From assembly GCA_028694425.1 (NCBI GenBank), contig JAQVKX010000001.1, forward strand, positions 841 to 64,840: a stretch of 64,000 bases of DNA, given 5' to 3'. The translations under genes and the position numbers were made by a program. Under the pieces are notes generated by a model. It was not told where the DNA came from. It ran no database searches and saw only the letters and a list, made by a program, of their open reading frames with translations. Origin of the DNA: Candidatus Gastranaerophilales bacterium. GTDB taxonomy: Bacteria; Cyanobacteriota; Vampirovibrionia; Gastranaerophilales; Gastranaerophilaceae. Shown in pieces: positions 13,371-47,010 of this stretch. Each line of letters starts with the position of its first letter. The first letter of the stretch is position 1.

Positions 13371-13405
13371 AGGCGAAATTTGGGGAAATTTCGCCTTTTT
13401 ATTTT
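13371..13405 (+). terminator. rho-independent terminator
   Basis: AGGCGAAATTT-GGGG-AAATTTCGCCT followed by TTTTTATTTT. Confidence 0.7.
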
Positions 13406-13410
13406 AAGTC

Positions 13411-13726
13411 GAGCATAGTATACGAGCATGCGGAAAAAGTCCCATTTTGACAAAAGCGGATTGCGAGCGGAGGCTGAAGGGCAAAACCACGCTTTTGCCC
13501 GAAATGCCGTTTAACGCGAGCAACCAAGGAGACTTTTTTGCATGCGACCTAAGAAGTGTGAAAGCCTTGCCGGCTGCGGGATAGCGAATTTTCGCCGGAG
13601 GGCGAAAGGGCAAAACGACGCTTTTGCCCATAGCCCGTTCAACGGCGAATAATTCAAGAAGCCGGCGGCAAGGCTTGAAACCGGACATCAGAGTTTACAG
13701 GAAAAAGGAATTTTTTCCGTAAACTC
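13411..13726. repeat. nested-palindrome element (NPE), long copy
   Basis: shares both ends and a central hairpin with 38692-38847; contains two extra GGGCAAAAC(C/G)ACGCTTTTGCCC hairpins; ends in GAGTTTACAGGAAAAAGGAATTTTTTCCGTAAACTC. Confidence 0.85.
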
Positions 13727-13794
13727 ATACAAATAAAAAAGATTGCCCATGATTTTTTGGACAATCTCTTTTAATTATTTGCTTACTTTATCTA

Positions 13795-23735: not shown

Positions 23736-23770
23736 AATAAATCCAACTTAAGAAGTGCTAAACCACACTT

Positions 23771-23805
23771 GAGCATGCGGAAAAAGGAACTTTTTCCGTA
23801 AACTC
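23771..23805. repeat. NPE, minimal copy (the two element ends joined)
   Basis: GAGCATGCGGAAAAAGGAACTTTTTCCGTAAACTC. Confidence 0.75.
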
Positions 23806-23856
23806 ACTTTACTTTTGTTATATAATTAAGCAAGAATACTAAAAAGGGGAAGATTT

Positions 23857-36359: not shown

Positions 36360-38687
36360 ATGGCTACAAAAACAACAAAGAAATCTGAAGATCAAGAAAT
36401 TAAAATGAAAACCACGAAGTCTAAAAAAGCCCCAAAGAGTGAGAAAGCTTTAGTGATTGTAGAGTCACCCGCAAAATCAAAAACAATTAAAAAAATTCTT
36501 GGTGACAGTTTTCAGATAGAAGCAAGTTTCGGACACATAAGGGATTTTCCTAAAAGCGTCCTGGGTTTTGACGTGCAAAAAGAGTTTGAACCGACTTTTG
36601 TCGTAATTCCCGAGAAAAAAAAGGTTGTTGGCAAATTAAATGAGATTGCAAAAAAATGCGATAAAATTTATCTTGCATCCGACCCTGACCGTGAAGGAGA
36701 AGCTATTGCCTGGCACGTACGCCAGATTCTTGATGTACCTGAAGAAAAAATCTTCCGCATAGAATTTAACGAAATTACACCAAAAGCTGTTAAGTATGCC
36801 GTTGAACATTCAAGACACATTGATATGGATAAAGTTAAGGCTCAACAGACAAGACAAATTCTGGACAGACTTGTAGGCTACAAAATAAGTCCTGTTCTTT
36901 GGGAAAAATTAAGAAATAACAGACTTTCGGCAGGACGTGTTCAATCCGTTGCCTTGAGGATGATTTGTGAGCGTGAAGAAGAAATAGAAGCATTCACTCC
37001 GGTTGAATACTGGTCAATTACCGCAGAACTCGACCAAAAAGGAACAATTATTGAGGCAGAACTTGCAAAATATAAAGACAAAAAAATTGAAATAAATAAC
37101 AAAGACGAAGCACAAAAAATCGTAGATTTTCTCTCCGATAAAACAACAAAATATCAAGTTTCTAAAATTACAAACCGTGAAAGCACAAGAAAGCCCTCGG
37201 CACCTTTTATAACCTCAACTCTGCAAAGAGAAGCCAGCTCAAAACTCGGCTACGGAGTTTCAAAAACCATGCAGGTTGCTCAAAAGCTTTATGAAGGTAT
37301 GGAATTAGGAAGCGAAGGTGCTGTAGGTTTGATTACTTATATGAGAACTGACTCGGTAAGAATCTCCGATGATGCTGTTCAAGCCGCAAAAGACTTTATT
37401 TTAAATAATTACGGTCAAAAATATTATCCGAGCGAAGCTAACAATTACGTTAAAACCGATAAAAAGAATGTTCAAGATGCTCACGAGGCCATCCGTCCGT
37501 CTTATCCCGAAAAAACCCCTGAAAAAATTAAACAATATTTGACAAATGAACAATATAGGCTTTATAAGCTAATTTGGGACAGGTTTATGTCTTCTCAAAT
37601 GTCAAATGCAAGTATTGCAAATACTTCAGTTGACATTGAAGCAGGAGACTATACTCTCAGAGTGGGTGCAAGCAAGGTTATTTTTGACGGATTTTTGAAA
37701 GTTTATACCGAAGAAAAAGAAGAAAATGAAATAGAAGACGGTGAACAAAATTTAGATAAAAAAACAATTCCTGACTTTGAGAAAGGTGATGTTTTAAAAT
37801 GTAAAAAAGTTAACCCGAAACAACATTTTACACAGCCTCCGCCAAGATTCTCAGAAGCTTCTCTGGTCAAAGCACTTGAAGAACACGGAATCGGTCGTCC
37901 TTCTACTTATGCTCCGATTATTACTAAAATTCAGACAAAAGGTTATGTTGAAAAAATTGAAAAAGCTTTGGTGCCTACACTTTTAGGCAAAACCGTTTCA
38001 AAACAGCTTGTTGAACATTTTCAACAAGTTATGAACTATAAATTTACCGCAGGTATGGAAACAAAACTTGACGATATAGCTGAACAGAAAGCTGTTTGGA
38101 ATAAAGTACTCAGAGATTTTTACGACCCTTTTATTGAAACGGTTAATAATGCAAGACAAAATATGGAAAAAATAAACATAGAAAGCGATGTGATTTGTCC
38201 AAATTGCGGAAAACCCATGCTGATAAGAACAAGCCGTTTCGGAACACAGTTTCTCGGTTGCTCCGGCTACCCTGAATGCAAAACAATGATGCCTTTAAAT
38301 AAGTCAGGTGAGGTTCAGGAGCCTGAAACAACAGATGAAAAATGTGAAAAATGCCGGTCAGATATGATTATAAAAGTAGGACCTTACGGAAAATATTTGG
38401 AATGTACAAATGAAGAATGCAAGAACAGAAAACGCCTTGTCAAATCAACCGGCGTAAAGTGCCCAAAAGAGGGTTGCGAAGGAGAAATTGTCCAGCGAAA
38501 ATCAAAATACGGAAAAATATTTTACGGCTGCAATAAATATCCCGACTGTAATTTTGTTCTTTGGAATGAACCTACGGGCGAAGCATGCCCTAAGTGCAAT
38601 TCACTTTTAGTTAAAAAAGTTCTGAAAAAAGGCACTACAATTCAATGTTCTAATAAGGAATGTGATTATTTTATCGAAAGTGAATAA
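36360..38687 (+). CDS. topA: DNA topoisomerase I
   Basis: Toprim LVIVESPAKSKTI, DPDREGE, active-site region YMRTDS, three or four C-terminal CxxC...CxxC zinc ribbons. Confidence 0.96.
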   Translation: MATKTTKKSEDQEIKMKTTKSKKAPKSEKALVIVESPAKSKTIKKILGDSFQIEASFGHIRDFPKSVLGFDVQKEFEPTFVVIPEKKKVVGKLNEIAKKCDKIYLASDPDREGEAIAWHVRQILDVPEEKIFRIEFNEITPKAVKYAVEHSRHIDMDKVKAQQTRQILDRLVGYKISPVLWEKLRNNRLSAGRVQSVALRMICEREEEIEAFTPVEYWSITAELDQKGTIIEAELAKYKDKKIEINNKDEAQKIVDFLSDKTTKYQVSKITNRESTRKPSAPFITSTLQREASSKLGYGVSKTMQVAQKLYEGMELGSEGAVGLITYMRTDSVRISDDAVQAAKDFILNNYGQKYYPSEANNYVKTDKKNVQDAHEAIRPSYPEKTPEKIKQYLTNEQYRLYKLIWDRFMSSQMSNASIANTSVDIEAGDYTLRVGASKVIFDGFLKVYTEEKEENEIEDGEQNLDKKTIPDFEKGDVLKCKKVNPKQHFTQPPPRFSEASLVKALEEHGIGRPSTYAPIITKIQTKGYVEKIEKALVPTLLGKTVSKQLVEHFQQVMNYKFTAGMETKLDDIAEQKAVWNKVLRDFYDPFIETVNNARQNMEKINIESDVICPNCGKPMLIRTSRFGTQFLGCSGYPECKTMMPLNKSGEVQEPETTDEKCEKCRSDMIIKVGPYGKYLECTNEECKNRKRLVKSTGVKCPKEGCEGEIVQRKSKYGKIFYGCNKYPDCNFVLWNEPTGEACPKCNSLLVKKVLKKGTTIQCSNKECDYFIESE

Positions 38688-38691
38688 GTTT

Positions 38692-38847
38692 TGAGCATGC
38701 GGAAAAAGTCCAATTTTGACAAAAATTGAGACTTTTCCGTATGCGACCTTAGAAGTGTGAAAACCTTGCCGGCTGCGGGATAGCCGGCGGCAAGGTTTGA
38801 AACCGGACATCAGAGTTTACAGGAAAAAGGAACTTTTTCCGTAAACT
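38692..38847. repeat. NPE, intermediate copy
   Basis: GAGCATGCGGAAAAAGTCCAATTTTGACAAAA...CCTTGCCGGCTGCGGGATAGCCGGCGGCAAGG...GAGTTTACAGGAAAAAGGAACTTTTTCCGTAAACTC. Confidence 0.85.
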
Positions 38848-38852
38848 CTTTT
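38812..38852 (+). terminator. rho-independent terminator of topA, formed by the terminal NPE hairpin
   Basis: 16-bp stem with one bulge, followed by TTTTT. Confidence 0.7.
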
Positions 38853-46967: not shown

Positions 46968-47010
46968 TTTAGAGTATCCGGAAAAAGGAATTTTTTCCGG
47001 ATACTCTAAA
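46968..47010. repeat. NPE-related perfect hairpin between pilin genes
   Basis: TTTAGAGTATCCGGAAAAA-GGAAT-TTTTTCCGGATACTCTAAA, perfect 19-bp stem. Confidence 0.8.

Follow-up and report, generated by a model that had tools for sequence, protein, structure and literature searches.

The window analysed here is a stretch of 64,000 nucleotides (C199:841-64840) from a 2.23-Mb draft genome which consists of 256 contigs and has a GC content of 34.4%. It carries four copies of a GC-rich palindromic element. These are located within 1-13 bases of the positions given in the original prediction, and all sequences quoted there are present. Gene positions were taken from a crude gene call (84% coding).

The longest of the four copies is a 303-bp composite element (13424-13726, plus strand). 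It is flanked by a 4-bp duplication, ATAC, at 13420-13423 and 13727-13730, and is composed of hairpin P1 with a nested module X1, hairpin P2 with a nested module X2, and the terminal hairpin P3. Its end had been predicted correctly, but the predicted start at 13411 included 13 flanking bases. Module X1 (GCGGATTGCGAGC...GCGAGCAACCAAG) covers 13456-13528 (plus strand) in the loop of P1 and contains a hairpin at 13479-13500. Module X2 (GCGAATTTTCGCCGG...CGGCGAATAATTCAAGA) covers 13584-13659 (plus strand) in the loop of P2, between AGC (13583-13585) and AGC (13660-13662), and contains a hairpin at 13608-13629. These are the two GGGCAAAAC(C/G)ACGCTTTTGCCC hairpins which had been described for this copy. 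The terminal hairpin P3 (13691-13726, plus strand) holds the right terminal inverted repeat (CTTTTTTCCGTAAACTC on the plus strand). A second 303-bp copy is found at C227:496-798 and has its own duplication, CTT. The 13 bases which adjoin the window copy on the left (GAGCATAGTATAC, 13411-13423) repeat the first six bases of the element (GAGCAT) and end with the duplication ATAC; they may be the footprint or a partial end of an earlier event.

A basic unit of 156 bp is found at 38693-38848 (plus strand), with the order P1, linker, P2, linker, P3. It begins 5 nt past the stop codon of topA (38685-38687) and is flanked by TTTT at 38689-38692 and 38849-38852. Nine complete 156-bp copies were found at other loci, each with its own duplication.

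The two remaining copies have a length of only 35 bp. The copy at 23771-23805 (plus strand) consists of the left repeat, a GAAC loop, and the right repeat, and is flanked by ACTT (23767-23770 and 23806-23809). Directly upstream (23741-23766, plus strand), a degenerate fragment of an older copy (AAATCCAACTTAAGAAGTGCTAAACC; compare CAAATCCGACCTAAGAAGTGCTAA from sub-family 2, see below) was recognized by eye. The copy at 46972-47006 is a perfectly palindromic variant (GAGTATCCGGAAAAAGGAATTTTTTCCGGATACTC); it is flanked by TTA and TAA and thus has no clean duplication. A perfect palindrome had been predicted for 46968-47010. The region is indeed palindromic, but only its inner part is the element while the remainder is palindromic flank.

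All four copies had been reported to be positioned just 3′ of genes. This holds true in the window, but the copies at 23771 and 46972 are also upstream of the next gene on the same strand. On either side of the 303-bp element is a terminator-like hairpin with a T-run. One of these (13371-13396, plus strand) belongs to a 72-aa ORF and the other (13773-13734, minus strand) to an 805-aa gene. A 94-aa ORF called on the minus strand at 13404-13688 is spurious, being an artefact of the GC-rich element, and such ORFs should be flagged in annotations.

Genome-wide copies and target-site duplications

The elements belong to a genome-wide repeat family, as had been anticipated, and further copies were detected both by BLAST and by profile searches. 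The BLAST comparison of the four window copies with the genome resulted in 73 merged loci, many of them at contig ends, and a profile of the basic unit resulted in 87 loci with a total length of 10.4 kb. An element is interrupted by 23 of the 512 contig ends. The family explains the conspicuous GC-rich palindromes of this genome and part of the fragmentation of its assembly.

The terminal inverted repeats are imperfect: every complete copy opens with GAGnnTnCGGAAAAA and closes with its reverse complement. The end motif GAGNNTNCGGAAAAA has 132 occurrences in the genome, compared to 0 for the reversed control, which is many more than chance would produce. When inverted ends less than 700 bp apart were paired, 41 pairs were obtained. 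Their flanks are identical over 3 bp in 29 pairs and over 4 bp in 7 more, while the same test, carried out 3 or 6 bases further out as a control, resulted in 1/41. Two of the pairs are not real, one being due to an internal P3 hairpin and the other to chance. A perfect target-site duplication of 3 or 4 bp flanks 36 of the 39 real complete copies. No fixed sequence is seen among the duplicated words, which are AT-rich; those of 4 bp include ATAC (303-bp copy), ACTT (35-bp copy), GAAT, TTAA, CTTT, and TATT. Except for one chance pair, no inverted end pairs more than 303 bp apart were found in this genome.

Three sub-families share one design. The window copies belong to sub-family 1 with its basic unit of 156 bp. 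The basic unit has 157 bp in sub-family 2 (ends GAGCTTGCGG and GAGGATGCGG) and 155 bp in sub-family 3 (right end GAGGGCACGGAATAA), where duplications are found in 6/6 copies. Element sizes are in the range of 35-303 bp, plus one composite of ca 450 bp. There is no coding capacity, as the only ORFs are spurious.

All copies are intergenic. The three which seemed to be inside a gene (C165:9593, C230:12200, C235:5766) are overlapped by spurious ORFs of 86-92 aa which are made by the elements themselves. Among 41 scorable copies, the spacer is convergent for 11, tandem for 17, and divergent for 13. Family-wide, the elements are thus not tied to gene 3′ ends as had been assumed, because 13 of the 41 are located between divergent gene starts.

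An IS5-family insertion sequence with matching ends

The partner insertion sequence was found in a sister genus, represented by a MAG (Candidatus Gastranaerophilaceae bacterium SO_2016_LW1_9, hereafter G319). Eight contig ends of G319 stop 100-125 bp inside a repeat which begins with GAGCTTACGGAAAAAGT. Further inward, GAGCTTACGGAAAAAGT is continued by either of two sequences, one for each end of a longer element. Among metagenome contigs, a pattern scan identified Ga0172381_10323619 (L120; 1218 bp), which is from the same sample as G319 and contains the whole insertion sequence. This has a length of 1216 bp, perfect 17-bp inverted ends, and a single ORF of 321 aa. The ORF scores 241.7 bits with NCBIfam model NF033581 (IS5 family transposase; cut-off 140) and carries the Pfam domains DUF772 and DDE_Tnp_1.

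Insertion sequences of the IS5 family (ISfinder groups IS5, IS427, and IS1031) have ends which begin with GAG or GA, generate 2-4-bp duplications, and code for a single DDE transposase with DUF772 and DDE_Tnp_1. The 1216-bp element fits this description. Matching flanks at contig ends suggest that its duplications have 4 bp (AACT, ACCT). The ends of the short elements agree with the end of the insertion sequence at 13-16 of 17 positions (12/17 for the divergent right end of sub-family 3). Unlike the insertion sequence, the window elements lack a transposase, and only the 17-bp ends are shared. The duplications also seem to differ: in the short elements, they are 3 bp long in 29 copies and 4 bp long in 7, are AT-rich, and do not read A(A/C)CT, compared to the apparent 4 bp of the insertion sequence.

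In the assembly of the genome under study, the matching insertion sequence was not found; tblastn with the IS5 transposase returned only a distant IS1182-like copy. Likewise, none of 201 sampled genomes from the same family has a close homologue of the transposase. Such absences are to be expected, given that insertion sequences tend to be lost from binned MAGs. Other transposases of this genome were considered as partner and were ruled out: its DDE_Tnp_1 proteins are IS1634-like, IS4-like, and IS1182-like, and contig C173 terminates in a partial DDE_Tnp_1_2 fragment, the ends of which are unrelated. The IS1182-like element (G000 C184:128-1828) has an ORF of 484 aa (DUF772, DDE_Tnp_1, DDE_Tnp_1_6) and 15-bp inverted ends, GAAGCTGCTGAAAAA. 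Its left end agrees with the left end of sub-family 1 at 15/19 positions (12/17 over the repeat of the insertion sequence). It sits without duplication in a GC-rich methyltransferase-like gene (SPPY motif).

Because of the terminal inverted repeats, the target duplications, and the matching insertion sequence, we consider it highly likely that an insertion sequence of the IS5 family is the source of the elements, which would be its non-autonomous DNA transposons (MITEs). A DDE transposase of this family, provided in trans, would bind the MITE ends, cut the target with a 3-4-nt stagger, and insert the unit, which would leave a 3-4-bp duplication. Against this reading, the insertion sequence was not found in the assembly, the duplications seem to differ in length and target words, nothing but the 17-bp ends is shared, and several module junctions (see below) lack a clean duplication.

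The elements share many features with prokaryotic MITEs, which have been reviewed (PMC10969869) with Correia, ERIC, Chunjie, MITEAba12, and the ISSoc2-derived MITEs of Synechococcus as examples. They are shorter than 500 bp, non-coding, and intergenic, have IS-type ends and short duplications, occur in tens of copies, would have strongly folding transcripts, and show size variants with the same ends. In contrast to known MITEs, the repeat at either end has an internal copy with which it folds into a separate hairpin, and there is a conserved GC-rich central hairpin which is absent from the insertion sequence. While MITEs are typically AT-rich (PMC10969869), those described here are GC-rich (46-51%) in a 34% GC genome, and their host is an uncultured Melainabacterium. 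The pneumococcal elements BOX, RUP, and SPRITE (PMC3049150; PMC10969869) are also modular and hairpin-forming, cluster and insert into one another, and are sometimes terminator-like. However, BOX is a tandem arrangement of boxes A, B, and C for which terminal repeats plus duplications are not a defining feature (PMC3049150; PMC10969869), whereas the modules described here are placed in hairpin loops of a unit which, as a whole, is delimited by IS5-type ends and duplications. In the literature, we found no described MITE for Melainabacteria, the non-photosynthetic cyanobacterial gut relatives, to which the elements add an apparently undescribed pair of MITE and IS5-family insertion sequence. 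The MITEs apparently form an undescribed, order-restricted superfamily with nested secondary palindromic modules, and represent a known kind of selfish DNA and no new kind of system.

Hairpins, nested modules, and shortened forms

The consensus of 16 aligned basic units (155-157 bp) from seven genomes consists of three hairpins. P1 has a GACA loop and is formed by the left end and an inverted copy of this end further inside. P2 is the GC-rich central hairpin with the conserved loop GCGGGATAGC. P3 is formed in the same manner by the right end and its internal copy. Conservation extends to the linkers, CGACCTWAGAAGTG and CCGGACA. The 156-bp copy has 45.5% GC and the 303-bp copy 50.8%, compared to 34.4% for the genome. 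The 156-nt copy folds at -69.7 kcal/mol (z = -9.2 versus shuffled sequence), and the 303-nt copy has z = -7.3.

The original prediction had pointed to compensatory changes as a means to distinguish a functional RNA from simple DNA palindromes. Such changes are abundant: both sides have changed in 28 of 39 pairs, and 96% of the cells in the alignment from the seven genomes are paired. None of 500 shuffles matches the observed pairing, and sliding the partner columns lowers it to 36-57%. This pattern shows that the hairpins are under selection. It does not tell the DNA level from the RNA level, strong covariation being equally expected for DNA hairpins or paired transposase-binding sites. Inspection by eye revealed that the ends of the insertion sequence carry similar sub-terminal inverted copies of the repeat, and P1 and P3 thus probably mimic a transposase-binding architecture. 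The P2 core and the linkers have no counterpart in the insertion sequence. The P2 loop and the linkers are as conserved as the ends, and simple transposase binding does not account for this. The question arises why an internal hairpin without such a counterpart is conserved across genera.

It has been suggested that the copies might represent structured RNAs. In that case, the P2 core and the X and Z modules at least, if not the entire units, would be functional as small RNAs, UTR stability elements, terminators, or insulators; selection on the transcript would keep the structure and transposition would only spread it. We consider this unlikely. The compensatory changes and the conserved loops of P1 and P2 are consistent with such a function but, as stated, covariation is also expected at the DNA level. 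A hint in favour of an RNA role is that, between co-directional genes, the strand on which P2 reads forward coincides with the gene strand in 14 cases versus 3 for the opposite strand (binomial p = 0.013). Also in favour, the forward strand of the cross-genome alignment has G-U in 20 cells versus A-C in 11, while the corresponding counts within the genome (G-T versus A-C, 6 vs. 2) are too small to judge. Against an RNA function, convergent, tandem, and divergent spacers are all occupied. At topA, TTTTT directly follows P3, and the two had been proposed to act as terminator. This is not supported, as the T-run is the target duplication and a consensus scan calls no terminator there; at the 303-bp copy, each of the two adjacent genes has a terminator of its own, located outside the element. 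A comparison with Rfam 15 gave no match to a known RNA family, neither for the window at the gathering score nor in E-value mode; two copies and eight loci showed only generic hairpins far below the threshold. Structured RNA is not the primary nature of this family, which is recognized as a DNA transposon derivative by its terminal inverted repeats, target duplications, and matching insertion sequence. We also consider it unlikely that selection in one orientation acts on the P2 core and the X/Z modules as domains of structured RNA or single-stranded DNA, in which case X/Z, which are repeatedly found in loops and linkers, would be undescribed, loop-seeking, small mobile palindromes.

In the longer copies, modules are added to the loops or linkers of the basic unit. 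The loops of P1, P2, and P3 hold X1, X2, and Y, respectively; linker 1 holds an X1-type module and linker 2 holds Z. The composite of ca 450 bp from C165:9361 holds four modules at once. Modules X1, X2, Z, and Y are palindromic and have a length of 54-125 bp. X1, X2, and Z have common ends (GCGRATT...AAYYCAAG) with their own short inverted repeats, and also share their layout: there is a stem on the outside, the asymmetric loop (GA/GTTYAA) is conserved, and the terminal hairpin can be exchanged. Other hosts, at C133:24036 (between TTT and TTT), on C255, and on C103, likewise carry modules of the X1 type.

Growth by insertion into loops had been proposed, and the long copies do carry their extra palindromic modules in the loops of host hairpins. 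X2 has the same junction in sub-families 1 and 2 and is identical at 72/74 positions (97%), while the backbones are only 72.6% identical; the nesting is thus considered real. Members of the module family are placed differently in the P2 loop of G319 (between GACA and GACA) and in linker 2 of another genome, G012 (between ACA and ACA). In the genome under study, a module is found in linker 2 between GAC and GAC, one base from the G012 site, and also in the P2 loop. A second family of palindromic modules (X1, X2, Z, and Y) has thus probably inserted into loops and linkers, with the host hairpins surviving the event. Short duplications are found at several module junctions (AGC, GAC, GACA, ACA, TTT), while others have 1-2 bases of repeat or none; a clean duplication is lacking for X1 in the loop of P1 and for X1b in linker 1. 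Three of ca 7 independent module insertion sites read GGAYA.

Like BIME/REP elements of enterobacteria, the MITEs are GC-rich extragenic palindromes in mosaic combinations. They might thus be REP/BIME-like or derived from IS200/IS605, in which case a Y1 (HUH) transposase or RAYT, and not a DDE enzyme, would move them as single-stranded hairpins. Three Y1_Tnp proteins (PF01797) are indeed encoded in the genome (C56:852-1196, C176:893-1234, and C93:13115-13483). However, the main family has terminal inverted repeats and 3-4-bp duplications. Y1 transposition (IS200/IS605, REP/RAYT) is not known to generate 3-4-bp duplications, and REP/BIME elements, which are tied to RAYT genes, have neither terminal inverted repeats nor target duplications. 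Also, neither an X, Z, or Y module nor any other family member was found near any of the three Y1 genes. We therefore regard this origin as very unlikely. It is a live possibility for the nested X/Z/Y modules, as X/Z modules sit in hairpin loops and many of their junctions have no clean duplication, but several X/Z insertions do have duplications of 3-4 bp (GACA in G319, GAC in the present genome, ACA in G012, and TTT at C133).

MITEs shorter than or intermediate to the full composites are also found. In forms of 174 bp, the 5′ half of X1 is joined to the 3′ half of X2 via the shared GGGCAAAAC hairpin. In the 35-bp forms, the P1 arm is joined to the P3 arm via the shared GGAAAAAG. Both clearly look like internal deletions between repeated parts, and either recombination or slippage between these parts could have produced them. 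The 35-bp copy at 23771 had been interpreted as the two ends joined, which is the case, but the alternative reading as an empty site fails: it has kept its own 4-bp duplication ACTT and is thus a minimal or deleted element. Further 35-bp forms with duplications are found at C80:6457 (ATT), C216:2128 (GAAT), and C237:1224 (TAA). As every size class, including each shortened form, occurs at several loci with different duplications, the shortened forms would either have remained mobile or have arisen repeatedly in place. The natural series from 35 to 303 bp, and up to the composite of ca 450 bp, leads to the question what a MITE needs in order to move. It is highly improbable that the 303-bp (or ca 450-bp) form is ancestral and that shorter forms arose by deletion only, without any insertion into loops: while the 174-bp and 35-bp forms are deletion products and palindromes between short direct repeats can be lost precisely by slippage, copies in other sampled genera are mostly plain 155-157-bp units without modules, and both the near-identity of X2 in divergent backbones and the variable positions of the module family argue against it.

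Z-type modules (GCGRATTTYGG...AATWATYCAAGAC) also occur inside other repeated contexts of this genome, outside of the MITEs with GAG ends (G000 C94:1474-1553, C246:5887-5966, C86, C117, C186, C196, C142, C163, C224:4442, and C165:21693). Many of them have a GCGAAGC mini-hairpin in a loop and a hammerhead-like but variable core (CUnnUGAG-stem-CGAAC). An assignment as hammerhead was ruled out because of the variation at core positions 5 and 6 and the lack of an Rfam match.

Distribution in the order Gastranaerophilales

A DNA search of 40 relatives revealed homologues with 68-86% sequence identity, with a total of 12 positive genomes among the 41 when the present one is included. When 401 genomes of the phylum, representing 156 genera, were searched with a covariance model, matches were limited to 22 genomes from the same family and one genome from a sister family of this order. 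The MITE family is thus restricted to the order Gastranaerophilales. The copy number per genome ranges from 1 to dozens. The genome under study has by far the most ends (132), compared to 38 in G319 and 18-19 in G012, G260, and G395. Perfect duplications are found for 36/39 copies in this genome, compared to 10/18 in G319, G260, G395, and G327, which points to a recent burst of elements in the genome under study.

Strain look-ups by exact protein identified one other sample with loci from the window, and two look-ups were without match. A strain polymorphism at the 35-bp site at 23771, which had been proposed as a check, was not seen, the sequence being identical in the one other sample which carries the locus. 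For the copy at 46972, the intergenic spacer has equal length in the second sample.

Six genomes from four genera have a single copy (L067, L068, L070, L073, L075, and L087 from G270, G004, G305, G046, G072, and G069, respectively). They share a small island with the gene for a 183-aa tyrosine recombinase, the MITE unit, and a HipB-like gene followed by a HipA-like gene. The island proteins are nearly identical between the two genera which were compared by eye. The HipB-HipA island is a plausible vehicle for the horizontal spread of the MITE. A conserved single-copy "master gene" was considered and ruled out, as the syntenic copies are on a shared mobile island with near-identical proteins, which suggests horizontal transfer and not orthology. 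There is an orthologous pair (G151/G397), but these genomes are too similar to judge purifying selection.

Some copies from other genomes deviate from the order P1, P2, P3. In the sister-family genome (L027, G031:C17:131766-132113), distinct P1 and P3 hairpins are replaced by two copies of one 55-nt hairpin, which flank P2 in direct orientation. Several copies from G012 (L023, L030, L033, L035, and L036) retain only P1 and P2. In one of these (L035, G012:C46), another hairpin with a T-run follows (AGAGGGCGAATTTTTGTTTCACAAAAATTCGCCCTCTTTTTTTT), which is terminator-like.
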